A stretch of 18,084 nucleotides of DNA from a virus. The DNA is taken from IMG/VR virus record IMGVR_UViG_3300045988_008799, positions 1 through 18,084 of that record; one strand, given 5' to 3'. The translations under genes were made by a program, and so were the position numbers. Shown here piece after piece: positions 1 through 18,084 of the stretch (position 1 is its first letter; every line of letters begins with the position of its first letter). Under the pieces are notes generated by a model. That model searched no databases, had not been told where the DNA came from, and saw only the letters and a program-made list of their open reading frames with translations.

Positions 1-271
1 AGGAGGGGAGGGGCCCCAGCAGCTATCCTTTTCCTATAACTGCTCTATCCTGTGTTTTATATTGTTGTTGCTCTCTGTGTTTTTCATTGCCGTTCCTTCT
101 ATGTTGTTTGCTATTGTTTTCTGTGCTTCCCGTTTTGCTGCGTTCTTTGCTGTTGTCAGTTCCGCGTGTTGTTTTTGTCCCGTAGTCTAAGTGTGTTGTT
201 TTGTCGATGATCTAAGTGCGTGGTTTTATCGTGTTTTTTGTTTGCCTGGCGTGTCGTGTTTGGGGCATGGT
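1..271. repeat. Left inverted terminal repeat, perfect 271-bp copy
   Basis: The reverse complement of 17814..18084 matches 1..271 base for base (checked by hand in 60-nt blocks). The first mismatch is at 272 (a versus g). A degenerate extension runs to about 314. Confidence 0.97.
186..231 (+). repeat. Two 21-bp imperfect direct repeats inside the ITR (mirrored at 17854..17899)
   Basis: tctaagtgtgttgttttgtcg (186..206) versus tctaagtgcgtggttttatcg (211..231): 18/21 identical, with a 25-bp period. Confidence 0.8.
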
Positions 272-304
272 AGTATAGAACTATCAACCAATGGAACGGA
301 AAGG

Positions 305-664
305 ATGGTGGTTGAGATGATTGACGGCAGCGACGATACTCGTAACCTTACTCTTGAGGCTTGTCCGTTGGGCGTGTTGTATGAGGCGTTTCGTAACTAT
401 GATGATGTTACGGCGCTTTATGTGACCTCGCTTGGGAATGATGCAAAGCGTGTGGAATATGTGGAGGTTGAGTTTAAGGTTAGTGGTAATGTGCGGTTTA
501 GCATAAAGCCTGTGACCGAAAAACCGTTTGTGTTTTTTGTGTCTTGGGTTAGCGATGGTTATCATTATATTCGTGTGAACTTCCGTGACATTGCGCTTAT
601 GTCTCCTAAGAAAGTCGCCAGGTTTGTGGCGGCCTATGTTCGCGACCTTGCGTTCGGTATCTAA
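305..664 (+). CDS. Hypothetical early protein (119 aa)
   Basis: The ORF-track frame 191..664 is trimmed to the first ATG outside the perfect ITR. That ATG follows gaaagg, and the aggatggtgg motif could also serve the ATG at 317. No recognisable motifs. Confidence 0.6.
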   Translation: MVVEMIDGSDDTRNLTLEACPLGVLYEAFRNYDDVTALYVTSLGNDAKRVEYVEVEFKVSGNVRFSIKPVTEKPFVFFVSWVSDGYHYIRVNFRDIALMSPKKVARFVAAYVRDLAFGI

Positions 665-680
665 CTGGGTTAGTGGTTTT

Positions 681-752
681 TCCTCGCTAGTGTAATTGGT
701 GGTACGGCAGTCTTTGGAACTGTTTGTCTAGGTTCGATTCCTAGGCGGGGAG
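681..752 (+). tRNA. tRNA-Gln, anticodon UUG, no encoded CCA
   Basis: Hand-folded cloverleaf. Acceptor stem tcctcgc/gcgggga (7 bp, one G-U). D stem gtgt/gtac with loop aattggtg (GG present). Anticodon stem gcagt/actgt with loop c-t-TTG-g-a (U33, purine 37). 4-nt variable loop. T stem ctagg/cctag with loop ttcgatt. U8 and A14 are present. Confidence 0.85.
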
Positions 753-946
753 CGAATGGGTTGCGTAGGGTGGCCCGCTGATTATAAGGATGGTGGTTAT
801 CATGAAGCGTTTTCGTGATTTTTTTGCAGCATGTGTGGGAGTGGGTTAAGGTTGTTGCGTTATGGTTATTGATTGTAGGGGCTATTGTGTTGGGTTCTGT
901 GATTGGGCACTTGGTTATTGTTATCTAAGAAAGGACGTGTGAACGT

Positions 947-1189
947 ATGAGTTTTGTACCGATGACGTGGGACGCGGCCATGGCTACCGCCTACTACGAG
1001 CAGGGTTACCGTGCCGGTTTGACGCTTCCCGCTCATGCTATCCGCCCATTGGAGGATGCGGCGTGCGCTCATGGTTATTGTGATTGTTTCCGTGAGGGTT
1101 ATGCGCAGGGTGTGACGGAGCGTGAGCAGCGTCTGGCCGACTTGCATATCGTGGACGCGATAGTGAGGGGTGAAATTGACCGAGCCTAG
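947..1189 (+). CDS. Hypothetical small early protein (80 aa) with GYxxG repeats
   Basis: ORF with aaagga upstream. Contains YEQGYRAG and REGYAQG motifs. Paralogous in motif content to the next ORF. Confidence 0.6.
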   Translation: MSFVPMTWDAAMATAYYEQGYRAGLTLPAHAIRPLEDAACAHGYCDCFREGYAQGVTEREQRLADLHIVDAIVRGEIDRA

Positions 1190-1409
1190 CAGTATCATGG
1201 AGCTTTGCACGCAACTGTTTGCCCAGTGGACTGAGCAGGGCGCTCATATCGCCGCTGTGGAGGGGTATGAGCGTGGTGTGTTGGACGCCGCCGAGGGTAG
1301 GCCCGAACGCGAAACGCTTCCCTATGATATTCATAGGATGTATAAGGATGATTATCAACGTGGATACCGTGAGGGGTATTATCATGGAACCGAAGAACCT
1401 GAATTTTGA
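1170..1409 (+). CDS. Hypothetical small early protein (up to 79 aa) with GYxxG repeats
   Basis: The ORF starts at GTG 1170; alternative starts are TTG 1176 or ATG 1197. Contains the EGYERG and YQRGYREGYYHG motifs. Confidence 0.55.
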   Translation: MKLTEPSSIMELCTQLFAQWTEQGAHIAAVEGYERGVLDAAEGRPERETLPYDIHRMYKDDYQRGYREGYYHGTEEPEF

Positions 1410-1647
1410 TGAAATCGTATCACAGTATACGACAACAAGATACCGTGCCTACTTTTACATTCCCGGATATGATTATATCTACACCGATTGGTATTACGGC
1501 AAGAGCGGTCTTGATGCGCTGCAAACGTTGCGTAATATTGTTTGCAAGTCTGAGGTGGTGGAGGGTTCTGCCGGATACATCCAGTCACAGCGGGTGGTAG
1601 TGGCCAAGGCTGTGCGAATTGGCGGGGGTATTGAAAATGAAGAATGA
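1384..1647 (+). CDS. Hypothetical protein (87 aa), Tyr-rich N-terminus
   Basis: ATG 1384 lies 7 nt after gagggg, inside ORF-track frame 1219..1647. The upstream part of that frame overlaps the previous gene and looks non-coding. Confidence 0.5.
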   Translation: MEPKNLNFDEIVSQYTTTRYRAYFYIPGYDYIYTDWYYGKSGLDALQTLRNIVCKSEVVEGSAGYIQSQRVVVAKAVRIGGGIENEE

Positions 1648-2161: not shown

Positions 2162-2478
2162 TTATGGCATACATTAAGCGAGCAAAGCATTATAGTATTG
2201 TGCGCGGCGTTACGCGCGGCGAAGACGGGGAACTTGTTGACGCCGAGGTGGTCGTGGAAGGCGCGTGCCGCACGGCCGATATGGCTATGAAGAAGGCCCG
2301 TAAGATTAATAAGGACATGCTGCCCATGTCCGCCGAGTATCATGCGCAGGCGACGCGCATGGACGAGGCAATCTATTGGGCTAATTGTGAATTTGGGGAT
2401 GATACCGTTATCGATTATCCGGGGCCGGTGACCGGCAACGTGGTCGAGGATGATATCATCTCCGAGGAAAATAATTAA
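2158..2478 (+). CDS. Hypothetical protein (106 aa) with an acidic C-terminal tail; positional analogue of the phi29 p6 dsDNA-binding protein
   Basis: ATGA overlap with the upstream stop. Its size and acidic tail (VVEDDIISEENN), and its position directly upstream of the SSB-TP-PolB genes, mirror phi29 gene 6. The functional call is positional only. Confidence 0.3.
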   Translation: MIMAYIKRAKHYSIVRGVTRGEDGELVDAEVVVEGACRTADMAMKKARKINKDMLPMSAEYHAQATRMDEAIYWANCEFGDDTVIDYPGPVTGNVVEDDIISEENN

Positions 2479-2508
2479 TAATCCCTATAAGGAAAGGCAA
2501 CGATAATC

Positions 2509-2946
2509 ATGGCTGACAACGAACTGACCGTAACGAACGGTAACAATTTTGCTGCGAACGGTGCTAATGCCGTCTCCCACTTCTTCGACACCACCACCAT
2601 GGACGGTAAGATGGCGCTCTATAACGCCATGCAGACCGCCGACAAGGTGGACGAACACCTCAACGAGCCGCTGCATGTGACCAACGTGCTGGCGCAGGCC
2701 ATCGAGGTGGCGAATCAGGAAACCGGTGAAATCAACTCTTCTACCCGCGTGGTTATTCACGCGGAGGAGGGTGACTTTGCCGCCGCCTCCCCCACGTTGG
2801 CGCACTCTTTTGGCAATTTGTTCGCCATTTTCGGCACGCCGGACACGTGGGCTTCGCCGCTGACTCTCAAGGTGGTGGAAAAGAAGAGCCGCCGCGGCTA
2901 CAAGTTCTTCGACCTTGAATTGGTGTCGGAGAACAAGCGCAAGTAG
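2509..2946 (+). CDS. Putative phage single-stranded DNA-binding protein (145 aa)
   Basis: RBS aaggaaagg. The pattern ALYNAM...V.NV......ETGE......RVVI....G.....S......L..IFG.P.....PL.LKV resembles phage SSB families of Gram-positive phages as I remember them. It sits immediately upstream of TP and PolB, as phi29 gene 5 does. Confidence 0.45.
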   Translation: MADNELTVTNGNNFAANGANAVSHFFDTTTMDGKMALYNAMQTADKVDEHLNEPLHVTNVLAQAIEVANQETGEINSSTRVVIHAEEGDFAAASPTLAHSFGNLFAIFGTPDTWASPLTLKVVEKKSRRGYKFFDLELVSENKRK

Positions 2947-3009
2947 CGCGATTGTCCACACCATATGATAGCATGGTAATGTCCCTATAGGGATGTTGCC
3001 GCCAAACCG

Positions 3010-3044
3010 CACCCCCGTCGTTTTCCATCCTTGCGGCGGGGGTG
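3010..3044 (+). promoter_or_regulatory. Intergenic stem-loop (11-bp stem, one G-U) between the SSB-like and TP genes
   Basis: cacccccgtcg (3010..3020) pairs with cggcgggggtg (3034..3044). The loop is 13 nt and is followed by ttt. Possibly an attenuator or terminator. Confidence 0.35.
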
Positions 3045-3067
3045 TTTCACACTCGCAAGGAGGGGTC

Positions 3068-4012
3068 GTGGCAAAACGTAAAACCAATCGACGCGCCAAC
3101 AATCTGAAACGCAATGCCGCAATCAGGTCGGCGCAGGTACGCAAGGAACGGGCGGTAAGGGATTACAGTACCGGACGCCTCCCCAAGCAAATCACCGAAA
3201 CGTTCCTGGGCAAACTCAGCGCCCAACAGCTTGAGCAGGTAGCACGACGTATCGGGCGGGAGTTCGGGGAACAACAGCAAGCCTTACGGGCGCGGGATAA
3301 CGAACCGTATCAGGTCGTGCCCGACGTGCATATTACGAAACTTGACCGTGAGATGGCGGCGCGTCCGCTGATATCCGACGCGGAAATCGCCGCAGCCCCG
3401 TCAAAACGCAGGAAGACATTACGGCAGCAGCAGCGCCGACGGGTTGAGGCGCGGCAGAAAATCAAACGCGCCCAGCGATTCGAGGCGCTGAGCATGGCCC
3501 AATATACCGTGGGCGAAGTACGCGAAATGGAACGCGCGGGCGAATCACCGTTCGACGTGTTGGGTACTCATACGGTTGGTGGTTCGGCGCGGGATGAACT
3601 CACGCGCAATCGCGCGAACGTGTTCGGTACGGAACGTGGCATAAGCCACGCGCGCGCGATGATACGCGACGGGAATCGTAAGGGACTTGAGCGGGAAATA
3701 TTGGAGTACACCGGGCTTGTGGGGCGTGCGCCATTGCGCGCGGGAACCAAGCGGATACCCGATAGTGAGGGTGTCTCGGATTTTGATAGGGTTGAACAAC
3801 AGCTAGAAGCGTTCGACTCTAGTATCGCGCAAAAAATCGCGTCTTTATCGAACCGCCAAAAACGATGGCTGATGAACAACACGAATTTTAGCACCGTAGT
3901 ACGTGAGGCGACATGGTATAATGACAAGACACATAAATGGGAAACCAAGGCGGACGCGGGCGACGTGGAGACACGACTCGATGAATGGATGACCAGCGCA
4001 CTACGGCACTAA
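3068..4012 (+). CDS. Terminal protein candidate (314 aa, Arg/Lys-rich)
   Basis: GTG 3068 follows aaggagg (3057..3063). The gene lies directly upstream of the protein-primed PolB, as phi29 gene 3 does. The N-terminus is very basic (AKRKTNRRANNLKRN) and there is an internal KRRKTLRQQQRRR. No sequence-level match was recognised. Confidence 0.55.
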   Translation: MAKRKTNRRANNLKRNAAIRSAQVRKERAVRDYSTGRLPKQITETFLGKLSAQQLEQVARRIGREFGEQQQALRARDNEPYQVVPDVHITKLDREMAARPLISDAEIAAAPSKRRKTLRQQQRRRVEARQKIKRAQRFEALSMAQYTVGEVREMERAGESPFDVLGTHTVGGSARDELTRNRANVFGTERGISHARAMIRDGNRKGLEREILEYTGLVGRAPLRAGTKRIPDSEGVSDFDRVEQQLEAFDSSIAQKIASLSNRQKRWLMNNTNFSTVVREATWYNDKTHKWETKADAGDVETRLDEWMTSALRH

Positions 4013-4024
4013 AAGGATGGAATT

Positions 4025-5485: not shown

Positions 5486-5623
5486 TAACCGGTAGCGGGG
5501 TGTGCGTCCCAAGCTGATTCGATGGCCCGACCGGTAGGCAATCGGTAAGGCGATTCGGTCGGATGTAGACGTGCGTAGCCAGCGCCCATTGACGGCGAGG
5601 GAACCCGCACAGCCTAGCAATCC

Positions 5624-5651
5624 GGCCCGGCAGCGTGATTGCTGCCGGGCC
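5624..5651 (+). terminator. Perfect 11-bp GC-rich stem-loop at the replication/morphogenesis boundary
   Basis: ggcccggcagc (5624..5634) pairs with gctgccgggcc (5641..5651), with loop gtgatt. There is no downstream T-tract, so its terminator function is uncertain. Confidence 0.4.
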
Positions 5652-5672
5652 ACTACCTTATAAGGGGTGATT

Positions 5673-6014
5673 ATGGACGATACCGAAAACAACGAGCCGG
5701 ACACCACGCCCGACACCGAGCCGGACGCCGGACCGGCCGACGATACCACGCCGAACCCGGAGCCCGAAACGCAGGACGATGGCGAACCGGAGGACGCGGG
5801 CGATGACAAGGACGCCGACATGGCCAACCGTCTCAGCGCCTTGGAGGCGACCGTGGCGGAACTATCCAAGACCATTGAGGCGATGCGCGACACGGCAGCC
5901 GACCACGTGTTGAACGACGGCCCGGACGCCGACGCGACGCCGGAATCGGCTGACATGACCGATGACGATTACAACGGCACCTACAGCACGTTCGATGACC
6001 TCTACGAAGACTGA
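5673..6014 (+). CDS. Putative scaffolding protein (113 aa, highly acidic)
   Basis: ATG 5673 follows aagggg. The gene is immediately upstream of the capsid gene, as phi29 gp7 is. It has an acidic P/D/E/T-rich N-terminal half followed by a helical segment, NRLSALEATVAELSKTIEAMRD. Confidence 0.5.
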   Translation: MDDTENNEPDTTPDTEPDAGPADDTTPNPEPETQDDGEPEDAGDDKDADMANRLSALEATVAELSKTIEAMRDTAADHVLNDGPDADATPESADMTDDDYNGTYSTFDDLYED

Positions 6015-6036: not shown

Positions 6037-7764
6037 ATGGCCACTACCCCAGTGGTGACGCCCAAGCAGCAGCTTAGGCCGCTCACTGAATTCAACAACG
6101 CCCAGATCCTCAACATGATTCGTAACGAGGCGTCCCCCGAATACCAGAGGCGCATGCCGTCCGCCACCCAGATGAACATGGATAGGCAGATGGCCACGCT
6201 CATGTCGTCCACTCAGTTGAAGAACGAGTTTTACGCGGCGCTGGTCAACCGCATTGGCGGCACCTATGTCAACACGTGGCGTTGGAACAATCCTCTTGGC
6301 GTGTTCCAGCGGGCTTCCCAGGCGTTTGGCGACACGTGGCAGGAAATCGCCGTGGGCATGCCGCTGGCTCAGGTGTACGACCCCGACGCGGAATACTTGG
6401 GCGCGGATAACTTCCGCAAGTGGAAAGTGGACGTGGACAGCCTCTACCACCGTCTGGACTTCGCCCACTGGTATCCGGCCACCACGGATGACAGGACATT
6501 GCAGCGCGCGTTCACCTCCGAAACCGGTTTGGCCTCGCTGACCTCGCAGATTCTCACGTCGTGCTATAACGCCGCCGAAGTGGACTTGTTCGAGGCCATG
6601 TGCCACCAGTTCGTCGAGTACGCGAAACTCGGCGGATATTACCGCGTCCACATGGACAACGACCTTAATGACATGGGGTCCACGGAGACTCAGGCGCGCG
6701 ACATGCTGCGGCAGATTCGCGCGTGGGCCGATACGCTGAAATTCGTGTCCACCCGGTATAATGCGCGTCACATGCCGACGTTCGCACGCCCCGACGAACT
6801 CGTGCTGTTCTGCTCCCCCGAAGTGAAGAGCGCACTGGACGTGCAGGGTCTGGCGACGGTGTTCCAGCGGACGGACGCCGAGCCGACCATCGACCGGATC
6901 ATCGTCATCCCGCAAGACCGATTCGGCATGGACGGCGTGCAGGCCATCCTGACCACCGACAAGTTCCTCATCGACATTCCGGTCATCAATGAGATGACGC
7001 AGCAGACCAACCCGGTCAACATCAACTCGGTCAACCATTACCTGCATGTGCAGCACATCATCAGCGTGAGCGGCTTCGCCCCGGCGGTGATGTTCTGGAC
7101 CGGCGCCGGGTCCACCGCCAAGATGGTGGCACCGACCGGTACGACCGCCAAGACACCGACATTCCAGCTTAAGCTGGCGATGTACGGTGGCGGTTCGGAA
7201 ACCCCGGGCAATGTGGCGCGTGGCGGCGCGGTGCAGGTCACCGCCGACACGACCATCGGCAACGACGGCACGGCCACGTTCCGCTCGGATGCGGTCGAAT
7301 ATCGCATCGGCGATACCGCCAAGCCCAAGAGCGATTACACGTACATCTCCCCGACCGGCGTGCTGGTGGTCGGCCTTGACGAGCCGAACACCACCATCCC
7401 GGTCACGGCGACCGCGCTGTACACCGACCCGGCAACCCCCGAAGTGCCGGGCACCGTGTCCGCCGCGCTGAGCGTGCCGGTGGTCGGTGACGGCGTCATC
7501 GGGTTCAACCCGTCGATTGTCGCGTCGATCGCCGTTGACGTCCCGAAGGTGACCACGGGTCATACGACGCAGGCGACCGCGACGGCCACCATGATCGACG
7601 GGCGCAAGGCCGACGTGACCGCGCAGGCCGCGTGGACTTCCGGCACCCCGACCAACGCCACGGTATCCGAATCGGGCGTAGTGTCCGGTGTCAAGTCCGG
7701 CAACTCCGATATTGCCGCCACGCTGTTCGGCGTGTCCGGCAAGAAGCAGGTGACCGTATCCTAG
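6037..7764 (+). CDS. Major capsid protein (575 aa), phi29 gp8-like, with C-terminal Ig-like (Big_2-type) domains
   Basis: ATG 6037 follows gaaagga. Blocks matching remembered gp8 sequence: ILNMIRN, NEFYAALVNRIG, NNPLGVF, CYNAAEVDLFEAM and ISVSGFAPAVMF. The C-terminal roughly 70 aa (GHTTQATATATMIDGRKADVTAQAAWTSG...ATVSESGVVSGVKSGNSDIAATLFGVSGKKQVTV) is a typical Big_2 pattern. Confidence 0.92.
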   Translation: MATTPVVTPKQQLRPLTEFNNAQILNMIRNEASPEYQRRMPSATQMNMDRQMATLMSSTQLKNEFYAALVNRIGGTYVNTWRWNNPLGVFQRASQAFGDTWQEIAVGMPLAQVYDPDAEYLGADNFRKWKVDVDSLYHRLDFAHWYPATTDDRTLQRAFTSETGLASLTSQILTSCYNAAEVDLFEAMCHQFVEYAKLGGYYRVHMDNDLNDMGSTETQARDMLRQIRAWADTLKFVSTRYNARHMPTFARPDELVLFCSPEVKSALDVQGLATVFQRTDAEPTIDRIIVIPQDRFGMDGVQAILTTDKFLIDIPVINEMTQQTNPVNINSVNHYLHVQHIISVSGFAPAVMFWTGAGSTAKMVAPTGTTAKTPTFQLKLAMYGGGSETPGNVARGGAVQVTADTTIGNDGTATFRSDAVEYRIGDTAKPKSDYTYISPTGVLVVGLDEPNTTIPVTATALYTDPATPEVPGTVSAALSVPVVGDGVIGFNPSIVASIAVDVPKVTTGHTTQATATATMIDGRKADVTAQAAWTSGTPTNATVSESGVVSGVKSGNSDIAATLFGVSGKKQVTVS

Positions 7765-7877: not shown

Positions 7878-10178
7878 ATGATGATTGATGATATCAACCC
7901 GTATGCGGAGGCTAATTTTTCATGGGCGGAATGGACGCCCAACACCACGCTGAAACTCTGCCGTGTCCCGTGGGATGCATCCTATCGGGATGTCGTCCGG
8001 TTTGTTTCACGTGAAACACAACGGGAATGGTTCGATACACTGGATGGCGTGGAATGCCGCCCGGCGACCATGCATATCTTCGGTGCCCCCGTGCGAATCG
8101 ACATGCCATTCAACCAAGCGTCGGACTACAATTATCTTGTGGCCGTCAATGACTATCCCGACTTGGAATCGCCACGCGCATGGTATTACTTCATCGAATC
8201 CGTGGAATACATCAACGCGCATACCACACAGCTCACGCTTATGCTTGACGTATGGCAGAGTTTCCAGCATGACGTGACGTTCGGCAGTTGCTATGTGACG
8301 CGCGGGCATATCGGCGTCGCCAACGAACACCAGTGGGATGATTATGGGCGTACCGCTCTGGCGCTGCCGGAGGGGCTGGATACCGGCGCGGAAACCGTCA
8401 TCGCCTCCCAGTCGTATACGGCACTGATGTCCAGCAAGCCCGCGCAACCCGGTTTCAATTCGCCTACCTTGGATTATGGTGTCATCGTCGTGGCCACGAC
8501 CGACCTTGTGGCGTCGGGCGGCAGCGCTGAAAAACCGTCACTGAAAACCGCGCAAGGCTCGCAATTCGAGAATCAATCCAACGGTGCGGGAATCTATTAT
8601 TTCGATACCGCCGATGATTTGACGCGCATCATGCAGGCGGGCAGTTCGTTCCCGTGGGTCACTCAGGGTATCACGGCGATTTACGCCATTCCCAAAATCA
8701 GCGCCGACTATATCGCCGACGCGGGGCGAGAGGTAACGCAATTTTTCGGTACCGGCACGGCCGGCGTGATCAAGGGACACGCATACACGTTCCTATGGGA
8801 GGCCAAGAGCGATAACCGGTATGATGATATCGTTTCCATCAGGAATTTTCGCGATAATTTCAACATTCCCAGCCGGTATCGCAATCTGAAAAAACTGCAA
8901 TGCTACCCGTATAGCGTCGTGGAATGCTCATGCCTGAATGGGTCGAACGTCATCTATCGGCCCGAGGATATCCAGTCCAATGACCTGACCATCCGTGAAA
9001 CGTGGAATTATGCGCCCCCGTCCCCGCGTTTGAACTTCTACCCGGTGGACTATAATACGGGTGGCGCGGCCACGGTCGATTCCCCGTCCGGGAATGGTAC
9101 CGGGTTGCCGATCGATGGCGGGGAAATGCTGAACGTCAGTTTCGGGATTACGAACTTCCCCCAGTTCATGGTGGTGAACAACGGGGCTTCGCTTGCCATG
9201 GCCAACAGCGCGTCCACTCGCGCTTACGCGGAACAGTCGGCAGGGTGGGCGCAGCAAAAAGCGACCATGAGCGCCGCCAACACACTATCCCAGGCTGGCG
9301 TAGGCATTCGTACCCAGCAGCAGCTTACGCAGCTCGGCGTGACCAACCGGAACGCGTTGAACGCCATCGCAGCCAACTCGCTCAACCAGTCGCTGGCCAT
9401 CGGACAGGCGAACACCAACGCCATGACCGACCTGAACGTGTCCCAGAACAACGCGCAGTCGGCGTGGGGGTTGATATCCAATGCCGGGAATGCGATCATG
9501 AACGCGGACGTGGCCGGACTGATCGGCGGCACGATCAACGGCATAGTCCAGAACGGCATCACCAATACAGGACTGCACGCAAGCCGTGATATCGCCAACG
9601 ACACGGCGGCGGCGAACACCGCCAACAGTGTGGCGACCAATGCGGCGCAAACCTCACAGGCGAACACCTACGCGCAACGCGCCCAACAGATCCAGGGCAC
9701 ATCCAGCGCCCTCATGGCCGGACAGAACTATCGGCTGGCCACGCGCTTTGCCGAGGGCGACTACGAAAACGCGATCGCCGGAATCAACGCGCAAGTGCAG
9801 CAAATGCAGATGACCCCGCCGACCACAAGCGGCGCGGCGGGCGGCGATTCGTTCAACCTTGCCAACGGCATCATGGGCGTGCTGGTTCGTTTCCGTACAT
9901 GCGCCCCCAGCGCGCTGCGCAGCGTCGGGGAGTTCATGTTACGGTTCGGGTATTTCGTCCAGCGGTTCATCACCCCGCCCGCAAGCCTGCAATGTATGGA
10001 AAAGTTCACGTACTGGCAGATGCAGGAATGCTACATCAGGGGCACACTGCCCGAGCAGGCGCGATTGACCATCAAGGGCATGTTCGAGCGTGGCGTGACC
10101 GTATGGGACAAGCCGGAGTATATCGGCATGACCGACTGGGCGGACAACGATCCACTGCCGGGCATCGGCTACGAGTGA
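7878..10178 (+). CDS. Tail knob / distal tube protein (766 aa), phi29 gp9-like
   Basis: ATG 7878/7881 follows ggagg (7869..7873). The N-terminal pattern LCRVPWDASYRDVVRF.S...Q..WF ... NYLVAVND......AWYYFIESVEYIN..TTQLTLMLDVWQSF.HDVTFG.CYVTRGH parallels remembered gp9 sequence (VPFSNDYKNTRWF...WFYAFVTELEFKN...DVLQTWMFD..F.ESFIVREH). Confidence 0.8.
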   Translation: MMIDDINPYAEANFSWAEWTPNTTLKLCRVPWDASYRDVVRFVSRETQREWFDTLDGVECRPATMHIFGAPVRIDMPFNQASDYNYLVAVNDYPDLESPRAWYYFIESVEYINAHTTQLTLMLDVWQSFQHDVTFGSCYVTRGHIGVANEHQWDDYGRTALALPEGLDTGAETVIASQSYTALMSSKPAQPGFNSPTLDYGVIVVATTDLVASGGSAEKPSLKTAQGSQFENQSNGAGIYYFDTADDLTRIMQAGSSFPWVTQGITAIYAIPKISADYIADAGREVTQFFGTGTAGVIKGHAYTFLWEAKSDNRYDDIVSIRNFRDNFNIPSRYRNLKKLQCYPYSVVECSCLNGSNVIYRPEDIQSNDLTIRETWNYAPPSPRLNFYPVDYNTGGAATVDSPSGNGTGLPIDGGEMLNVSFGITNFPQFMVVNNGASLAMANSASTRAYAEQSAGWAQQKATMSAANTLSQAGVGIRTQQQLTQLGVTNRNALNAIAANSLNQSLAIGQANTNAMTDLNVSQNNAQSAWGLISNAGNAIMNADVAGLIGGTINGIVQNGITNTGLHASRDIANDTAAANTANSVATNAAQTSQANTYAQRAQQIQGTSSALMAGQNYRLATRFAEGDYENAIAGINAQVQQMQMTPPTTSGAAGGDSFNLANGIMGVLVRFRTCAPSALRSVGEFMLRFGYFVQRFITPPASLQCMEKFTYWQMQECYIRGTLPEQARLTIKGMFERGVTVWDKPEYIGMTDWADNDPLPGIGYE

Positions 10179-10190: not shown

Positions 10191-11141
10191 ATGAGTAGGT
10201 CTAAAAGGAATCGGGTTGACGGCGCATTGCATCCGCGCGGCAACTACGCCAAAGCACGCGCCGCCTCCCTTGACATGATGTATTATCATCTGTTGGCGGA
10301 ACTGGCGTTGAACCGTTTCAGTTGGCGCGGATTGCCGCCGACCGTAGACGAGCGATGGCTGGAAATGTGCCTATGCGAATACGGTTGCGCATTGTTTTTC
10401 GAGGACAAGCGCATAGGCCGGTTTTTGGTGACGCAAGCCGGATATCAAGGCCGGTTGAATGTGTACGATAACCCGACGTGTTTCGAGCCGGTGGGCGTCA
10501 ACTACCATTACCGGCAGCTCAAGGCCGGACGTGAATGCATCCCGATTTGGGATAATCGCATGCGCATGTCGTTCAAGGATGTCCTATGGCAGTATGCGCG
10601 ACGGTTGGCTGACATTGATAAAGCGTATGACGTGAATCTGGAGAGCCTGAAGCTTCCGACCATCATCACCGCCGACCCGCGTACCAAACTGACCGTACAG
10701 AACATGCTTCAGCAGCGGCAGGACGGTCAGGATTACATCATCGGATACGACTCACTGGATCCCGGCAGCATGTTCCAACCGTGGCCCAACACCACGCCCT
10801 ACCTCTTGGACAAGTTCATTCAACAGAAGACGCAGGTGACCAACGAGGTGCTGGGATACCTGGGCATCCAGTCCAGCGGTACGGAGAAAAAGGAACGGCT
10901 CATATCCGACGAGGTGGCGCAAGCCAACGAGAAGGTAGACGTGTTCCGCCTGAGTTTCCTTAAGGCGCGGCAGGCGGCGGCAACGGAAATCAACCGGTTG
11001 TGGCCGCAATTGAACATCTGGGTGGAGTACGCGGACGCACAAAGCTCCGGCGTGCCGAACGCGCTCGATTCCAGCGCCAGCGGTACGACGGATATTGACA
11101 TGCCCGCATCATATGACGCGGGTATCGGAGGTGTATTATAA
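10191..11141 (+). CDS. Portal / upper collar connector (316 aa), phi29 gp10-like
   Basis: Size matches gp10 (about 309 aa). Motifs NRFSWRGLPPTVDERWLE (gp10: LFEWENLPPTINPSFLE) and TEKKERLISDEVAQANE (gp10: LEKKERMVTDEVSSNDE). Confidence 0.9.
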   Translation: MSRSKRNRVDGALHPRGNYAKARAASLDMMYYHLLAELALNRFSWRGLPPTVDERWLEMCLCEYGCALFFEDKRIGRFLVTQAGYQGRLNVYDNPTCFEPVGVNYHYRQLKAGRECIPIWDNRMRMSFKDVLWQYARRLADIDKAYDVNLESLKLPTIITADPRTKLTVQNMLQQRQDGQDYIIGYDSLDPGSMFQPWPNTTPYLLDKFIQQKTQVTNEVLGYLGIQSSGTEKKERLISDEVAQANEKVDVFRLSFLKARQAAATEINRLWPQLNIWVEYADAQSSGVPNALDSSASGTTDIDMPASYDAGIGGVL

Positions 11142-11932
11142 TGCAGGATTTTACCGCCTATGCGATGACCACGCCCGGCGAGTACACCGAAACGTTGGGC
11201 AATCTCATTGCGTTCGGATACGATACGGACGATAAACTGCATCTGAGCGCCGACTATTACCCGATTTACGACGAGAGCCATCGCGCGGAGTTGAACGAGA
11301 AGATCATCCGCCATTACGCGTTGCGGGAAATCGGGCAGGAAACCGCGCAGCAGTTCGTTTTTTATCTGGGTATGACGATGGCGGAAATCATGCCCTATTT
11401 CAACGAACGCTACCGCACGCTCGATATGGAATATGATCCGTTGGACTCCATGGACATGACCACGGATAGCGAGAGCGGCAGCGAATCCCAGTCCTCGGGC
11501 AAAGCGTCCAGCACGCAGGATTCGACCAGCTCAAGCACGTCCAAGTCGGACAATAGCAGCACCACCACGTCCAGGAGTTTCGACAGTGACGTGCCGCAAA
11601 CCGGCGTCGTGGGCGACTTCGCCCGCTACGCGAGCCATGCGAACGAATCGCAGGCGGATAGCGGCGGCACCGCGTCCAGTTCACAGGATTCGACCAGCCA
11701 CACCACCGCCCAGAGCGCCACCGACTATCAGCATGATTCAAGCAATTCCAAGGGCAAGAGTCACGTGACCGGGCGCAGCCAGAGCGCTATGAGCCTGATT
11801 CAGGAATACCGTAACGCCATCATCAACGTGGACATGGAGGTCGTGCGCAGTCTCGAACCGTGCTTCATGCAAGTGTGGGGGTCTTATGATACAATTTTCA
11901 GTAACTGCCATAATTTTGGAGAATGGGAGTAA
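11141..11932 (+). CDS. Lower collar protein (263 aa), phi29 gp11-like
   Basis: TAATG overlap with the portal stop, and ggagg lies 9 nt upstream. The position directly after the portal gene fits gp11. Conserved-looking ends (PIYDESHRAELNEKIIRHYALREIGQET..F; EYRNAIINVDMEV) flank a Ser/Thr-rich central segment. Confidence 0.7.
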   Translation: MQDFTAYAMTTPGEYTETLGNLIAFGYDTDDKLHLSADYYPIYDESHRAELNEKIIRHYALREIGQETAQQFVFYLGMTMAEIMPYFNERYRTLDMEYDPLDSMDMTTDSESGSESQSSGKASSTQDSTSSSTSKSDNSSTTTSRSFDSDVPQTGVVGDFARYASHANESQADSGGTASSSQDSTSHTTAQSATDYQHDSSNSKGKSHVTGRSQSAMSLIQEYRNAIINVDMEVVRSLEPCFMQVWGSYDTIFSNCHNFGEWE

Positions 11933-11934
11933 TC

Positions 11935-12992: not shown

Positions 12993-13005
12993 GAAGGAAC
13001 CAGCA

Positions 13006-13899: not shown

Positions 13900-13916
13900 C
13901 GACGGGTCGATGCACC

Positions 13917-13946
13917 ATACCCCGTCCGGTACGCCGGGCGGGGTAT
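13917..13946 (+). terminator. 13-bp stem-loop after the fibre gene
   Basis: ataccccgtccgg pairs with ccgggcggggtat (one G-U), with loop tacg. There is no T-tract. Confidence 0.4.
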
Positions 13947-13955
13947 ACTGATATC

Positions 13956-15170
13956 ATGGTAGACGTGCAAGCATGGTTGGAACGGACCCAAAACCAATAT
14001 TGGGACATGGATGGTAGTTATGGCGCCCAATGCTGGGACTTGTGGGCGAAATACTGCATGGATAATTACAATCTGTCATTAGGTGATTGCATCACCCCGA
14101 CGGGCTACGCGGAGGGCAATTACACCATGTTTCCCACCACGGCGGCGGTGGGGCGCGTGTTCGAGAGGAAGGACGCCGATTATACGCCCGGCATGGGCGA
14201 CGTGGTGTTTTGGACGTTCGGCAGTCGGATCTACACCGGCAGTCACGTGGCTATCGTATGGGGTGGCATCCAGGGGGACAATATCGATGTTCTGACGCAG
14301 AACCCGACGCCTGCCGTTCACCAGTTGTTACCGCTTATGAAGGGTTCGCAGCTACTCGGCTATCTGCATCCCACGGCATTGCCGGAACCGCCGGAATCCG
14401 GCGATAATCCGACCGGCGGCAATAATCCGGGCGTGGGTGTGGATGGCGATATCTCCGCGTGGATACAATTGCAGGGTGATAATCTCATTTATCACAGTGG
14501 CTCGGGCACGACGTCATCCCAAGCCGTTTTCTACAAGGCGAGCGCCCAAACGTGGGTGTATCGCGGTGCCAAGGGTCAGCCGGACGCCGACCAGGGGCAG
14601 GGCACGCCGAGCGTGGGCGATGGGGAAAGCTCCTACGCGCTTTACGTCATCGGTACCGTTGAATCATCGTTGCGTTGGGATGCCGTCGAGTCCAATGGTC
14701 AGGGTATCGGTATCGCGCAATGGAGTTTCGGCAGGCGTTTGCAGGTGTTGAACGCGATGAAGGCGGTGGACGCCGTAGGGTATGAGGCGTTTGCCGCCGC
14801 CGCGCCAGGCATCGCCGCGCTTATGGAGTCGGGTGGCACGTTCGACAGGGCGATGACCGGTAGTGAGGTTGCGGCGTTCCGGACGTGGGCGCGGCGTGCG
14901 GAATCTCGGCAGGGGCAGCGGGACCGGTTTGCGGAGGATTATGAGGGTTACCCGCAGACGTATGATGATGCGAAGATGCAGATATTATGGACGTGCGCCT
15001 ATCATCAAAGTCCGGCGGGCGCGTTGAACGTGCCGCATGCCTCGACCCTTGCGCAATTGTATGGCAATATCCTCGGTACGTCCCCGTTCGGGTCGTATGG
15101 GACGCGCTATAATACCGCCTATTCGTTGTTGAATGTGTGGGATGGCGTCAGTGCGCCGCCGAATTTCTGA
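13956..15170 (+). CDS. Tail-associated peptidoglycan hydrolase (404 aa): N-terminal CHAP peptidase plus C-terminal lytic-transglycosylase/lysozyme-like domain (gp13 analogue)
   Basis: CHAP signature: YGAQCWDL (Cys codon at 14031) and GSHVAIVW (His near 14244). A Pro/Gly linker follows. The C-terminal GTVESSLRWDAVESNGQGIGIAQW resembles the SLT E-S...G-hydrophobic-x-Q motif. The position matches phi29 gp13. Confidence 0.8.
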   Translation: MVDVQAWLERTQNQYWDMDGSYGAQCWDLWAKYCMDNYNLSLGDCITPTGYAEGNYTMFPTTAAVGRVFERKDADYTPGMGDVVFWTFGSRIYTGSHVAIVWGGIQGDNIDVLTQNPTPAVHQLLPLMKGSQLLGYLHPTALPEPPESGDNPTGGNNPGVGVDGDISAWIQLQGDNLIYHSGSGTTSSQAVFYKASAQTWVYRGAKGQPDADQGQGTPSVGDGESSYALYVIGTVESSLRWDAVESNGQGIGIAQWSFGRRLQVLNAMKAVDAVGYEAFAAAAPGIAALMESGGTFDRAMTGSEVAAFRTWARRAESRQGQRDRFAEDYEGYPQTYDDAKMQILWTCAYHQSPAGALNVPHASTLAQLYGNILGTSPFGSYGTRYNTAYSLLNVWDGVSAPPNF

Positions 15171-15185
15171 CATCATGGTGAACCG

Positions 15186-16328
15186 GTGGATATCTACCGG
15201 TTGTCGCTATTGTATGGTAGTGTGGATGATATGGAGAGGCTGTTAGGCGAAGGCGATTACTATGATTATGGGCGCGTGTTGTCCTATCACGCGCCTTGGA
15301 TGTTCGTCATCGGCGCGCGCGGCCTCGGTAAGACCTATGGCGCTAAGAAACTGGTCATCGGTGACTGGATTAAAAAACGCTGGCAGTTCATCTACCTACG
15401 CCGGACGGCGGAGGAGCAGAAGAACAAGGGCACATGGTTCGCGGATATTGCCGAACAGTACCCCGACCTGGAGTTTCGGGTGTCCGGCAATCAGGCGGAA
15501 TGCCATTGGTTGGATGACAGGGACGCCATCATCGACAAGCATGGCAGGAAACGCCCGACATGGCATGTCATGGGGTATTTTATCGCACTGTCGCAGGCCG
15601 GACAGGTCAAATCGGTGGCCTACCCCAAGGTACGCACGATGATTTTTGACGAAATATTCCCCGACAACATGCGTTATCTCGGCGGAGAGGTCACGGCGCT
15701 GGAGGAATTCTACAATACGGTGGACCGTTGGAATGATAGGGTGAGGGTTATCATGTGCAGCAATGCCGTAACCCTCGCTAACCCGTATTTTAGCGCGTTC
15801 AATATCAACCTGAAACCACAATTGGATAATCACACGCAATACCAACGGTATTGCGATGGGTTTATTATGGTGGAACTGGCGGATTATGGCGGGTTCAGCG
15901 CCAAAGTCGCAACGTCGAAATTCGGACGATTTTTACGCAAATATGATGAGAATTATGCGAATTATGCAATCGATAATGATTTTAGGGATAACGCTGATAC
16001 TCTCATCAGTGATTTTAACAACGCCGGTTATGCATTCACGTTAAGAACCACGGAATACGGTATTTTCAACGTATACCAGCAATTAAGCGACACCGATGAA
16101 GTATTGTACATCATCACTAAGAAACAGCCTAAAATCACACGTGATTTTACGTTTGATTATCGACTGGTCGATAATGATTGCATGATGCTCAAACGTTCCG
16201 ATGATATGACGCAGAAAATATTAAACGCCTATCGCGTCGGACGGTTACGGTTCGAAACACCGCAGATCAAAGCGGAATTCAGTATGATTCTTGGCGGCTT
16301 GTTACAACAATCAGGCATAAGAAAGTGA
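15186..16328 (+). CDS. DNA packaging (encapsidation) ATPase, phi29 gp16-like (380 aa from GTG; 365 aa if ATG 15231)
   Basis: LSYHAPWMFVIGARGLGKTYG (Walker A, 15312..15335) versus gp16 LSYDRILNFVIGARGIGKSY. RTMIFDEI (Walker B, D/E at 15648..15653) versus STIVFDEF. VRVIMCSNAVTLANPYF versus VRCICLSNAVSVVNPYF. Confidence 0.93.
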   Translation: MDIYRLSLLYGSVDDMERLLGEGDYYDYGRVLSYHAPWMFVIGARGLGKTYGAKKLVIGDWIKKRWQFIYLRRTAEEQKNKGTWFADIAEQYPDLEFRVSGNQAECHWLDDRDAIIDKHGRKRPTWHVMGYFIALSQAGQVKSVAYPKVRTMIFDEIFPDNMRYLGGEVTALEEFYNTVDRWNDRVRVIMCSNAVTLANPYFSAFNINLKPQLDNHTQYQRYCDGFIMVELADYGGFSAKVATSKFGRFLRKYDENYANYAIDNDFRDNADTLISDFNNAGYAFTLRTTEYGIFNVYQQLSDTDEVLYIITKKQPKITRDFTFDYRLVDNDCMMLKRSDDMTQKILNAYRVGRLRFETPQIKAEFSMILGGLLQQSGIRK

Positions 16329-16335
16329 GGAATCA

Positions 16336-16722
16336 ATGATGGAAACCTTATTTTACGAAATTCTAGCCGTATTCGTGTTCATTATTATGGACTATATTAC
16401 CGGCGTCATCAACGCAGTAATGCACGGCAAACTGTCCAGCACGAAAATGCGGGAAGGACTGGGGCATAAATTCGCGTATCTTTGCGTGTTTTTCGTTGCG
16501 TGGTTCATCGACTTTGAAATGGGCCACATCGACATTGGTTTCCATACCACGTTAACGCCGCTCGTTACCGTGGGTATCGTGCTGATCGAGTTGTCCAGCA
16601 TCATCGAAAATATCGGCAAAATCAATCCCGAGCTGGCAGAAGCAAAGTTCATGAAAATTTTCACCGAATGTCACAAGGAGGATGATGGCAATGGCGATAC
16701 GGACACCACCGGAGGCCGTTGA
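16336..16722 (+). CDS. Holin (128 aa), Phage_holin_4_1 / TcdE-like
   Basis: Three hydrophobic segments plus the family pattern DYITGV..A.....L.S.....G...K and IELSSIIENIGK, followed by a charged C-terminal tail. Confidence 0.8.
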   Translation: MMETLFYEILAVFVFIIMDYITGVINAVMHGKLSSTKMREGLGHKFAYLCVFFVAWFIDFEMGHIDIGFHTTLTPLVTVGIVLIELSSIIENIGKINPELAEAKFMKIFTECHKEDDGNGDTDTTGGR

Positions 16723-17485
16723 TTACGCGCGGTCAGTCCTCAATGCAGGCTATAACGGATACTGTTTGGCGCACGTCCAAGACGCCTACGGGGCGGAACC
16801 GCGATACGCCAGTGCAATAGCCGCATGGAACGGATGCAGCGAACCACACCCCACAAGCGACCTAGCGTCCACACCATACGGCGCGCCCATTTACTTCTCG
16901 CAACCCGGCAACCCCTATGGGCACATCGCGTTGCACCTTAATGGCGATATGATGTACACCACCGATAGCAGCGTCGGGCATCCCCACGAGGATAGCATAT
17001 CCAAGTGGATACGCCAATATGGATATGTGCCGCTCGGATGGAGCGGCGACATAGAAAACCAACCGATCCCAGAATTAGGAGATGATGACATGCCAACCGC
17101 AAATGAAATCGCTGAAGCCGTATGGAACTTCAATCAGAACGGCGTCAAAATGCGCGACCGCGTACAGGGTATCGACGGAGCCGCAAACAGCGCGAACAAT
17201 GAAATTCACCGCTTAAGCACGTGGGATAATAAAACCCACGCATCCAATATGGGCAATTTGCTCACCGAACAACCCGTAAAATACAACGGCACAACCGCAA
17301 AGCTCGGGGATAGAATCGGATATATCGACGCCCATACGCATACCATGGAAGCGCAAATTACCGCGCTCACCGAAGCCGTGAAAACCCTAGCCGCCAATCA
17401 GGGTGCCGACCCGGACAAAATCGCGGCAATCGTAGAACAGGCCGTGAAAGAAAAACTGGAATCACTCACCATCACAGTAGAGTGA
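16682..17485 (+). CDS. Endolysin candidate (about 264-267 aa): N-terminal NlpC/P60- or CHAP-like cysteine peptidase plus an uncharacterised C-terminal half
   Basis: aaggagg (16675..16681) is followed by ATGs at 16682/16685/16691. Catalytic-type Cys in NGYCLAHVQDAYG (near 16763) and His in YGHIALHL (near 16922). The gene lies adjacent to the holin and overlaps its 3' end. Confidence 0.65.
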   Translation: MMAMAIRTPPEAVDYARSVLNAGYNGYCLAHVQDAYGAEPRYASAIAAWNGCSEPHPTSDLASTPYGAPIYFSQPGNPYGHIALHLNGDMMYTTDSSVGHPHEDSISKWIRQYGYVPLGWSGDIENQPIPELGDDDMPTANEIAEAVWNFNQNGVKMRDRVQGIDGAANSANNEIHRLSTWDNKTHASNMGNLLTEQPVKYNGTTAKLGDRIGYIDAHTHTMEAQITALTEAVKTLAANQGADPDKIAAIVEQAVKEKLESLTITVE

Positions 17486-17500
17486 CACCATAGCATGAAC

Positions 17501-17530
17501 AAGCCCCGCAGATCGCGGGGCTTATTTATT
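17501..17530. terminator. Rho-independent, bidirectional terminator
   Basis: aagccccgc (17501..17509) pairs with gcggggctt (17515..17523), with loop agatc. It is followed by atttatt on the + strand and preceded by an A/T run for the - strand. It lies 16 nt after the endolysin stop and abuts the stop of the convergent ORF. Confidence 0.8.
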
Positions 17531-17704
17531 GAGGGGCCACTTATCAAGCAGAATCACCGCATACAAGCAACGAATCTCACCGTCAACCTCATATTCATCC
17601 CTGAGCTCATACTCAAAACCAAACGAAACGAACGTAGCCACGAACAATCCCAACGCTTCACCTGCACTAGAAGCATCCTCGACTACCCAAGAAACGTCAC
17701 CCAT
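17522..17704 (-). CDS. Hypothetical small acidic protein (60 aa; 71 aa if GTG 17737), transcribed inward from the right end
   Basis: This is the only plausible minus-strand ORF. It ends at the bidirectional terminator and lies downstream of the right ITR in the same relative position as ORF 305..664 at the left end. The RBS is weak. Confidence 0.4.
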   Translation of the reverse strand: MGDVSWVVEDASSAGEALGLFVATFVSFGFEYELRDEYEVDGEIRCLYAVILLDKWPLNK

Positions 17705-17813
17705 CCTGACATGATAGCAAGAAGACACTTCACGCACTTCTTCCGAAACTCAGATTACAACGTTCATAACAACCACCATCCTATCCGTTCCCATTGGCTG
17801 ATAATTCCATACC

Positions 17814-18084
17814 ACCATGCCCCAAACACGACACGCCAGGCAAACAAAAAACACGATAAAACCACGCACTTAGATCATCGACAAAACAACACACTTAGAC
17901 TACGGGACAAAAACAACACGCGGAACTGACAACAGCAAAGAACGCAGCAAAACGGGAAGCACAGAAAACAATAGCAAACAACATAGAAGGAACGGCAATG
18001 AAAAACACAGAGAGCAACAACAATATAAAACACAGGATAGAGCAGTTATAGGAAAAGGATAGCTGCTGGGGCCCCTCCCCTCCT
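17814..18084. repeat. Right inverted terminal repeat, perfect 271-bp copy
   Basis: Reverse complement is identical to 1..271. Degenerate similarity continues inward to about 17770 (5 substitutions plus a 1-nt indel). Confidence 0.97.

Follow-up and report, generated by a model that had tools for sequence, protein, structure and literature searches.

What kind of element is the 18,084-bp stretch of viral DNA held as IMG/VR record IMGVR_UViG_3300045988_008799 (the whole stretch is hereafter called the window), and does the long inverted repeat at its two edges set it apart from the phages that it resembles? The initial annotation took it for a complete, protein-primed linear phage genome with unusually long, perfect inverted terminal repeats (ITRs). 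Here it is read, with high confidence, as the genome of a virulent podophage, uncultured and of human-gut origin, related in type to Bacillus phage phi29 (Salasmaviridae) and Streptococcus phage Cp-1 (Cepunavirus; NC_001825), complete to about 3 nucleotides (nt) per end, with Bifidobacterium as the most likely host. The species-level lineage is new, within an already described kind: viromes have yielded phi29-like phages of gut Bifidobacterium, and a recent review covers them (10.1101/2021.07.02.450849; PMC11476376). The long ITRs are proposed to be a lineage trait kept identical by the mode of replication, and no peculiarity of this genome. A structured RNA and a degenerate exonuclease domain of the family B DNA polymerase (PolB), both lineage-wide features, are more worth following up than the ITR.

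Gene content of a phi29-type phage

Phi29-like phages have linear double-stranded DNA genomes of ~16–20 kb with ITRs, and the window, with 18,084 bp and a perfect ITR of 271 bp, falls within this description. Its GC content is 56.1% overall; hand counts of 45/60 at 7201..7260 and 36/60 at 9301..9360 in the initial annotation were correct. Nearly all long open reading frames (ORFs) lie on the + strand (Table 1), their starts having been refined by independent gene calls on an identical contig. The phi29-type virion and packaging proteins are all present, namely the major capsid protein (MCP; PF25622, 4e-85), the tail knob gp9 (PF20934), the connector gp10 (PF05352, 7e-43), the lower collar gp11 (phrog_3225/5472) and the gp16 ATPase (PF05894, 1e-43). 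With the matches to DNA_pol_B_2, single-stranded DNA-binding protein (SSB) and holin, they bear out the phi29-order virion gene set recognised earlier. Past the gp13-like lysin, the order ATPase–holin–lysin is like that of Cp-1. The family Tectiviridae, whose members combine a double jelly-roll capsid protein and an FtsK-type packaging ATPase with a tailless, membrane-containing virion, was suggested by size, GC content, one-strand coding and ITR. It was rejected because the capsid protein is Phi29_MCP (HK97-type) and the connector, collar and tail are of the phi29 type.

PolB, named as protein-primed in the initial annotation, proved to have the phi29 fold. It matches PF03175 at 2.2e-33 and aligns to residues 206–501 of phi29 DNA polymerase (E = 1.7e-44) across motif A (DVNSLYP), motif B (KLLLNSLVGKFG), motif C (YADTDG), KxY, and the TPR1 and TPR2 regions, of which the last two characterise protein-primed polymerases. 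With an AlphaFold2 (AF2) model of predicted local distance difference test (pLDDT) score 90.8, the top Foldseek matches are all phi29 DNA polymerase over the whole length (E = 4.5e-39; template modelling (TM) score 0.84 to 2pyj), and the next-best family B polymerases follow at E ~1e-11 and TM ~0.46. PolB is hence a protein-primed-type family B polymerase with the fold of the phi29 enzyme.

The terminal protein (TP) candidate of the initial annotation was located between the SSB and PolB genes, the position of the annotated TPs in Ayka, Av-1 and Cp-1, and the order SSB–TP–PolB–scaffold–MCP agrees with that of the same three genomes. Its probable start is GTG 3068 behind an AAGGAGG ribosome binding site (RBS), which gives 314 amino acids (aa) as in most database homologues; the protein has an isoelectric point of 10.5 and a net charge of +10 over its first 30 residues. 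Candidates for its priming residue lie near TWYND, ~30 aa before the C-terminus. Homologues are found in all Bifidobacterium podophages, and the family comprises 25 clusters at 50% identity. Synteny and these properties suggest that the product of 3068–4012 is the TP.

Inverted terminal repeats and physical ends

Direct comparison confirmed that positions 1..271 are the reverse complement of 17814..18084 without mismatch and that the repeat reaches both window edges. A perfect inverted repeat of 271 nt cannot have originated by chance. Beyond it, an imperfect similarity with a few mismatches and one indel continues up to ~315–320 and then disappears (98% identity over 315 nt in the end-to-end alignment). 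The GC content of the ITR is 45%, and the inward-reading strand of 51–271 consists of 51% T and only 6.8% A. The interior holds direct repeats of ~22 nt in two pairs, the copies of each pair lying 25 nt apart (50–72/75–97 and 186–206/211–231), and its T-runs show a periodicity of ~26 nt. These repeats and this periodicity may mark binding sites of an origin-organising protein; the first ~50 nt of the ITR presumably serve as replication origin.

The length of the ITR had been taken as a substantive architectural difference, which is true only in comparison with phi29, whose ITR has 6 bp (PMC4974454). Among reference genomes, the ITR is 236 bp (perfect, as annotated) or 352 bp (at 97.7%) in Cp-1, 259 bp (perfect) in BadAztec1, 210 bp (at 95%) in Av-1 and 16 bp in Anjali. 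Since those of Cp-1, BadAztec1 and Av-1 measure ~210–259 bp, an ITR of 271 bp is long only relative to the Bacillus group. Relatives in IMG/VR are likewise comparable: a protein-guided scan returned 107 of them, most being contigs of 17–19 kb, and those that reach a shared terminal motif have ITRs of 200–761 nt. The conserved terminus of this clade reads 5'-AAAAGGAGGGG(A/T)GGG(G)(C/T)CCC..., the first ~50 nt being conserved and the ITR interior drifting.

In 24 homologous contig ends of the relatives, the GGAGGGG motif is mostly preceded by AAAA. The window begins at AGGAGGGG, with a single A, and therefore ~3 A's are most likely missing per end. The window edges are most likely the physical termini minus three A's each, which would give a true genome of ~18,090 bp, an ITR of ~274 bp and a terminus reading 5'-AAAAGGAGGGGAGGGGCCCC.... 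In L030 (L numbers denote individual related loci), a TruSeq adapter (...GATCT) immediately abuts AAAAGGAGGGG at each end, the arrangement that ligation to a physical DNA terminus should produce. The linear ends of the window are supported by the relatives' termini and by this adapter–terminus junction. Of the claim of a complete linear genome, linearity and the phi29 type thus stand, and completeness falls ~3 nt short per end. Untrimmed Illumina adapters (Nextera or TruSeq) occur at contig ends of L001, L010, L019, L030, L036, L055, L067 and L074.

Could the ITR be an assembly artefact, produced by a chimera, by a contig end folded back on itself or by duplication of a graph node, on a genome with short or no repeats? 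Assemblers do shape contig ends in this clade: among the related public contigs, many show terminal inverted repeats whose length, exactly 55, 99 or 119 nt, coincides with an assembler k-mer size, and a collapsed repeat would give perfect identity. Repeats of length k are, however, the expected product of a real, longer ITR. Judged from the sequences, the 55-, 99- and 119-nt ITRs are longer ones collapsed in the de Bruijn graph, and such 'complete' records are truncated inside the ITR; the GenBank records of BD811P2 (55 nt) and BP1 (unequal ends) also appear truncated. Moreover, contigs that reach the conserved terminus carry the 200–761-nt ITRs, which are homologous across independent assemblies and end in the conserved motif, abutted by the adapter in L030. 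The cultured BadAztec1 and Cp-1 have the 259-bp and 236-bp ITRs given above, and the imperfect similarity past position 271 speaks for biological divergence and not for software duplication. An artefact is accordingly extremely unlikely. Contigs with k-mer-sized ITRs are L008, L011, L014, L016, L018, L022, L026, L028, L033, L037, L044, L061–L063, L072, L073, L075 and L081 (BD811P2).

An identical PolB is found on four independent contigs. One of these was assembled from a human-gut metagenome by MEGAHIT at k127 (ERZ919697/ERR414245, PRJEB5224); it is 17,796 bp long and begins 144 nt in from the window's edge. If collinear throughout (it was compared over its first 15,341 bp, and its right end is deduced from its length), it also stops 144 nt short, keeping exactly 127 nt of the ITR per end.

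Replication and transcription from the two ends

All steps of the following scheme are drawn from the phi29/Cp-1 paradigm. The two identical ends (5'-AAAAGGAGGGGAGGGGCCCC...) would be the replication origins, at which a heterodimer of the 314-aa TP candidate and PolB would begin synthesis by placing dAMP against an internal T within the 3'-TTTT end of the template. Sliding back would follow, and then strand-displacement replication helped by the phi29-type SSB. The sliding-back rule has been described for phi29, GA-1, Nf, Cp-1 and PRD1, and the terminal A-run compatible with it is a likeness to phi29 (PMC4974454). The 3'-TTTT template end fits this rule; it is deduced from the relatives, which end in 5'-AAAA as sliding-back needs, while the window itself shows one A, so that the reiteration is carried over to this genome from them. 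Finally, the gp16-type ATPase, seated on the connector, would package unit-length TP-DNA, and the RNA encoded at 5494–5656 may take part as a packaging RNA (pRNA).

The ITR would also carry early promoters. The perfect repeat stops inside an extended -10-like element (TGGTAGTAT at the left, TGGTGGTAT at the right), and a leader, an RBS and an ATG lie within its imperfect continuation on either side of the genome. This promoter–leader block recurs at both ends of the relatives. In the window the left block precedes ORF 317–664 and the early genes, and the right end (17486–17817) repeats this promoter, leader, RBS and ATG in diverged form, with the duplicated ATG opening an ORF of 9 codons only. 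An extended -10 at the inner edge of each perfect repeat would thus serve the rightward early genes at the left and one small inward gene at the right, like in Cp-1. This inward gene, the 71-aa - strand ORF (17737–17522), converges with the + strand genes on the hairpin at 17501–17523, which is a probable bidirectional terminator. Equivalent inward-facing genes are present at the right end of BD811P2, BadAztec1 and Cp-1, and mapped early promoters flank both ITRs of Cp-1. Given the inward right-end genes and the promoters at both ITR edges, the architecture is therefore Cp-1-like and not phi29-like.

Cp-1 resembles the window also in its ~19-kb linear genome with a long ITR and a terminal A-run, in having early promoters at the inner ITR edges of both ends, nearly all genes on one strand and small inward right-end genes, and in the order TP–PolB–...–scaffold–MCP–connector–collar–tail–ATPase–holin–lysin. 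It differs in its GC content (38.8%), its Firmicute host and its canonical 568-aa PolB annotated with exonuclease activity; DNA similarity is not detectable between the two, and protein similarity is only distant. The window shares with phi29 the PolB fold (TM 0.84) and homologues of SSB, MCP, gp9, gp10, gp11 and gp16. Unlike the window, phi29 has a 6-bp ITR, leftward early genes, a pRNA at the left end and a low-GC host (PMC11476376; PMC4974454), as well as a 575-aa PolB with intact ExoI–III.

Relatives, host and mode of life

Whole-window megablast against 50,697 GenBank phage records gave only one match, of 200 bp, to a human faecal 'Bacteriophage sp.', in line with the expectation that no near-identical genome had been described. 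The nearest IMG/VR contig, L003 (IMGVR_UViG_3300045988_017601), has ~89% average nucleotide identity (ANI) over 90% of the genome, which is below the 95% species threshold, and therefore does not belong to the same species. Many other IMG/VR relatives show 80–86% ANI over ~75–80%. These contigs belong to the same clade and share the terminal motif, ITRs and RNA element with the window, from which they differ in the leftmost 1.8 kb, around the tail-fibre genes and at the right end; 317–946 is found only in the window.

By protein, the nearest cultured phages are the Bifidobacterium phages BadAztec/BadAargau (MCP 44%), followed by BD811P1-3 and BP1 (MCP 37%; tail, connector, ATPase and lysin 48–56%), and Curtobacterium and Arthrobacter phages are more distant protein relatives. 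BadAztec1/BadAargau2 (Badaztecvirus), BD811P1-3 and BP1 have an identical gene order, a short PolB (445–471 aa), an unannotated gene of ~320–350 aa between SSB and PolB, and a promoter, structured RNA and hairpin in the gap between the PolB and scaffold genes. Their proteins are 30–56% identical to those of the window and there is no DNA similarity at the megablast level, so that the genus threshold of ~70% over the genome is not reached and the window does not belong to the same genus as the Badaztecvirus/BD811P-like phages. The terminus of BadAztec1 is also different, its record beginning with CGTTGCG....

The high-GC Gram-positive affinity proposed initially agrees with the fact that the nearest cultured relatives all infect Bifidobacterium. 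PolB is 88% identical to one labelled metagenome-assembled genome (MAG) of Bifidobacterium breve, and assemblies of human-gut samples also contain the identical PolB. Homology, labels, human-gut provenance and GC content make Bifidobacterium the most likely host. Another gut actinobacterium such as Eggerthella or Collinsella, or a non-actinobacterium, is conceivable, since identity to proteins of cultured Bifidobacterium phages is only 30–56%, the B. breve label derives from a MAG bin, and the same viral family has been predicted to include Eggerthella phages (10.1101/2021.07.02.450849). Against such a host, MCP, tail, connector, ATPase and lysin each have a Bifidobacterium phage as their top cultured match, with Curtobacterium and Arthrobacter phages further away; the C-terminal (wall-binding) half of the endolysin is shared with endolysins of BD811P1/P3 and of related phage contigs (see below); and a GC content of 56% fits Bifidobacterium. 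We regard a host outside Bifidobacterium as unlikely. Scans of 185,579 species-representative genomes with the tail protein and the lysin found no relatives and hence no host clue.

Protein-primed linear plasmids and temperate tectiviruses have similar sizes, ITRs and PolB, and ~1.5 kb of early genes in the window are without assigned function, so that a linear plasmid, a tectivirus-like temperate plasmid-prophage or an integrated prophage has to be weighed against a virulent phage. The complete phi29-type set of HK97-fold capsid, connector, tail and gp16, with no double-jelly-roll capsid, argues against such an element, and no integrase, repressor or partition genes were found in the Pfam/PHROGs scans. 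The scans with the tail protein and the lysin showed no copy among the 185,579 genomes, which also answers the initial concern about a prophage. Furthermore, the relatives in culture are lytic isolates obtained from sewage or bee gut, and an infant-gut study terms the family virulent (10.1101/2021.07.02.450849). A plasmid or prophage is therefore very improbable.

Several points weigh against the reading as an almost complete, protein-primed phage of Bifidobacterium. The host is deduced only from homology and labels. The true 5' ends are taken from relatives and not from the window's own reads, and the perfect identity of the two ITR copies could in part have been imposed by the assembler through repeat collapse. 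The TP candidate has no detectable similarity to known TPs in Pfam and PHROGs scans, in a Pfam scan of 25 family members, in a profile search against the PDB or in hhalign against the annotated TP of Ayka; its all-helical AF2 model is of low confidence (pLDDT 54.7, shallow alignment), too poor for a fold search. A protein covalently bound to the genome ends is presumed by analogy, and the promoter assignments are at the level of consensus only.

A shortened polymerase with a degenerate exonuclease domain

PolB measures 445–486 aa in this clade, compared with 554–631 aa in canonical relatives and 571–598 aa in Ayka and Anjali. The exonuclease domain (4025–4490, residues 1–155) has ~150 aa versus ~190–205 and is ~50 aa shorter than in phi29. 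Canonical homologues carry ExoI (DFET), ExoII (HNxxFD) and ExoIII (YxxND). In hhalign comparisons with 20 canonical enzymes, D10, D47 and D119 of PolB stand opposite D12, D66 and D169 of phi29, and the profile–profile alignment contains no PolB counterpart of phi29 E14 (ExoI), N62 (ExoII) or Y165 (ExoIII). The phi29-like motifs ExoI (DxE), ExoII (Nx2-3F/YD) and ExoIII (Yx3D) are hence not found in PolB, and D47 and D119 are not conserved among more distant short PolBs. The phi29 N-terminal sequence in these alignments is presumed to be correct; residues 206–501 of the phi29 sequence used agree with the computed alignment. The shortening and degeneracy are clade-wide in Bifidobacterium podophages, the fold being kept in the AF2 model. 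Proofreading has probably been lost or strongly altered. A literature search found no report of an exonuclease-degenerate protein-primed PolB in phages.

A conserved structured RNA between the PolB and scaffold genes

Across 73 relatives, the gap between the PolB and scaffold-like genes keeps a constant size of ~180 nt, and its conservation exceeds that of the genes on either side. From 27 non-redundant versions, RNAalifold predicted 45 pairs, of which 23 show compensatory double changes. In a pair-count control, 99.0% of cells were paired, compared with 31–44% when the partners were slid. The 23 covarying pairs contrast with 2–5 in slid controls and 9.2±2.1 in shuffles, and none of the 500 shuffles reached the observed values. 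The window's own sequence folds at z = -5.3, and G-U pairs and minimum free energy favour the + strand. The RNA consists of a domain of ~121–124 nt, a short linker and a 3' hairpin of 11–12 bp (5624–5651). The domain comprises a bulged closing helix, a three-way junction, an arm that bears a 5' bulge of 6–7 nt and is capped by a GUAAGG loop, and a further short hairpin; the same architecture emerges from independent folds of the very divergent versions of BD811P2, BP1, BadAztec1 and L074. A covariance model finds the syntenic site of BadAztec1 (E = 2e-4). In Cp-1, Av-1, Ayka and Anjali it gives only weak matches, which are suggestive by position and are not evidence; that of Cp-1 is on the opposite strand, in the gap corresponding to 5494–5656.

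Upstream, the extended -10 sequence TG(C/T)TATAAT lies over the PolB stop codon in all the loci compared, even where PolB is only ~36% identical. In BD811P2 and BP1, a U-tract follows the 3' hairpin and is in turn followed by the promoter TGATATAAT. Positions 5478–5656 thus look like a discrete promoter–RNA–terminator unit.

What could be the role of this RNA? In the phi29 pRNA, domain I has 117 nt, and a linker of 13 nt joins it to domain II on the 3' side (PMC5066667). The features expected of a pRNA-type molecule, i.e. a closing helix, a three-way junction, two arms and a 3' domain in ~120 + ~50 nt, are all present in the RNA at 5494–5656, which in a total of ~160 nt has the junction, the two arms, the linker and the 3' hairpin domain, as well as its own promoter. 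A pRNA is further expected to have complementary CE-bulge and D loops through which the molecules join into a ring. Between the bulge loop of the first arm and the loop of the second, the versions differ in this respect, with 3–6 bp where pairing could form: ACCAC/GUGGU in BD811P2 (5 bp), GCCAC/GUGGC in BP1 (5 bp, with one A-U to G-C compensation relative to BD811P2), GGCAAA/UUUGCC in L022 (6 bp) and UGGC/GCCA in L074 (4 bp). L012 has one uncompensated change, the pairing in BadAztec1 is ambiguous, and in the window the complementarity is limited to GGC/GCC (3 bp). A pRNA would have to bind proheads and be needed for packaging, to which the gp16-type ATPase and the connector of the window speak only indirectly. 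The N-terminus of the connector is basic (MSRSKRNR), and in phi29 such basic N-terminal residues of the connector bind pRNA. On the other hand, the RNA differs from phi29-family pRNAs in lying between the PolB and scaffold genes and not at a genome end, in the short loop complementarity of the window itself and in the lack of an Rfam match. Rfam searches gave no pRNA (RF00044) match at E <= 1 on the window or E <= 10 on 5440–5700, finding only the tRNA. Because known pRNAs share only ~12% sequence identity (PMC5066667), the missing match is weak counter-evidence.

The main rival explanation is a leader or attenuator that controls read-through into the late genes at the early/late boundary. The RNA is quite possibly a pRNA analogue, with a likelihood approaching even. 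Somewhat more tentatively still, 5478–5656 may encode the packaging RNA of actinobacterial phi29-like phages, which would establish a credible pRNA beyond the Bacillus group for the first time, placed at the early/late boundary in a lineage that may have a proofreading-dead, miniaturised PolB (445–486 aa).

Two further observations concern the reference genomes. The 'packaging RNA' annotated in the Av-1 record (L087, 16295–16402) is different from the RNA described here, and its fold is weak, at -14.6 kcal/mol for 108 nt. In Av-1 (L087, 4460–4615) and Anjali (L085, 4960–5300), the early/late gaps fold into a multibranch domain with a very strong terminator hairpin behind it, and resemble the unit of the window.

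Variable regions and remaining features

The segment 317–946 is made up of the 115-aa ORF, a tRNA gene and a G/T-rich spacer. Nothing homologous to it occurs in 83 related loci, and a DNA search with 272–946 against GenBank phages gave no match. The segment looks like a recent acquisition in a variable left arm. No tRNA was found in 60 relatives including the cultured ones, and the cultured Bifidobacterium phages thus differ from the window in this respect. The acceptor end of tRNA-Gln(UUG) is U1-A72, and CAA makes up 29% of the glutamine codons of the phage. It is plausible that the tRNA supplements a CAG-biased host.

The relatives are mosaic across 12000–14400, and the 200-bp megablast match, to MT836241 (a human faecal phage contig) with 84% identity, lies at 13916–14115 across the start of the CHAP lysin. 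Both findings point to exchange of tail and lysin modules by recombination. Only the C-terminal ~130 aa of the putative endolysin match those of relatives, whose endolysins have an amidase_2 domain at the N-terminus; identity is 60–72% to endolysins of related phage contigs and ~60% to those of BD811P1/P3, which indicates that a catalytic module has been swapped on a conserved wall-binding module.

Two ORFs were discarded. ORF 17495–17929 (+), running into the right ITR, was judged spurious, being without homologues and sharing sequence with both the terminator hairpin and the ITR. ORF 5480–5956 (-) was rejected as a shadow of the conserved scaffold-like gene and the RNA region.

Table 1. Features of the 18,084-bp window, with position, strand and basis of assignment
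Feature	Position	Strand	Basis
Left ITR, perfect part	1..271	+	exact reverse complement of 17814..18084; first ~50 nt are the clade-conserved terminal motif
ITR interior, strand-biased, with repeats	50..231 (mirror 17854–18035)	+	composition and repeat analysis
Left early promoter-like extended -10 TGGTAGTAT (268–276), leader, RBS, ATG 317	268..319	+	homologous block at right end; Cp-1 precedent
ORF of 115 aa, only in this genome	317..664	+	0 homologues in 83 related loci
tRNA-Gln, anticodon UUG	681..753	+	51 bits; confirmed by ARAGORN
Five small early genes without assigned function	947–1189, 1197–1409, 1348–1647, 1637–2161, 2164–2478	+	Pfam/PHROGs scans, gene calls
phi29-type SSB	2509..2946	+	Pfam/PHROGs
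TP candidate, 314 aa	3068..4012	+	synteny and protein properties
Protein-primed-type family B DNA polymerase, 486 aa	4025..5485	+	DNA_pol_B_2, structure model
Extended -10 promoter TGCTATAAT overlapping PolB stop codon	5478..5486	+	kept in 76/76 related loci
Conserved structured RNA	5494..5656	+	covariation; three-way-junction domain ~5495–5618, short linker, 3' hairpin 5624–5651
Scaffold-like protein, acidic N-terminus, coiled C-terminus	5673..6014	+	position as in Ayka and Cp-1
MCP, Phi29_MCP with C-terminal Big_2-like (Ig-like) domain	6037..7764	+	Pfam/PHROGs; longest ORF from 5962
Tail knob, phi29 gp9-like	7878..10178	+	Pfam/PHROGs; longest ORF from 7788
Connector/upper collar, gp10-like, basic N-terminus MSRSKRNR	10191..11141	+	Phage_connector
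Lower collar, gp11-like	11141..11932	+	PHROGs
Three tail or fibre candidates, variable region	11935–12570, 12576–12992, 13006–13899	+	comparison with relatives
CHAP + lysozyme-like cell-wall hydrolase, tail-associated gp13-like position	13956..15170	+	Pfam/PHROGs
gp16-type DNA encapsidation ATPase	15201..16328	+	Podovirus_Gp16
Holin	16336..16722	+	Pfam/PHROGs
Putative endolysin	16682..17485	+	C-terminal ~130 aa common to amidase_2 endolysins of BD811P1/P3
Strong hairpin, 9 bp (7 GC), between convergent + and - genes	17501..17523	.	probable bidirectional terminator
71-aa ORF, inward from right end, poorly conserved	17522..17737	-	preceded by 9-codon remnant of duplicated leader + ATG
Right-end copy: promoter-like element TGGTGGTAT, leader, RBS	17765..17817	-	end-to-end alignment
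Right ITR, perfect part	17814..18084	-	0 mismatches to 1..271; touches window edge

Implications

The true termini of the clade are documented here, and many public records are without them, having k-mer-truncated ends or adapter remnants, or being truncated like BD811P2 and BP1. A compact polymerase with the phi29 fold but without canonical exonuclease residues bears on the tolerance of small linear genomes for low fidelity, and could be a useful enzyme. If the assignment as a pRNA-like RNA is true, it would supply new three-way-junction scaffolds for RNA nanotechnology and would make RNA-dependent packaging motors testable outside the Bacillus phages. Bifidobacteria are keystone bacteria of the infant gut, and the genome adds one species to an abundant, barely studied clade of virulent phages of gut bifidobacteria.

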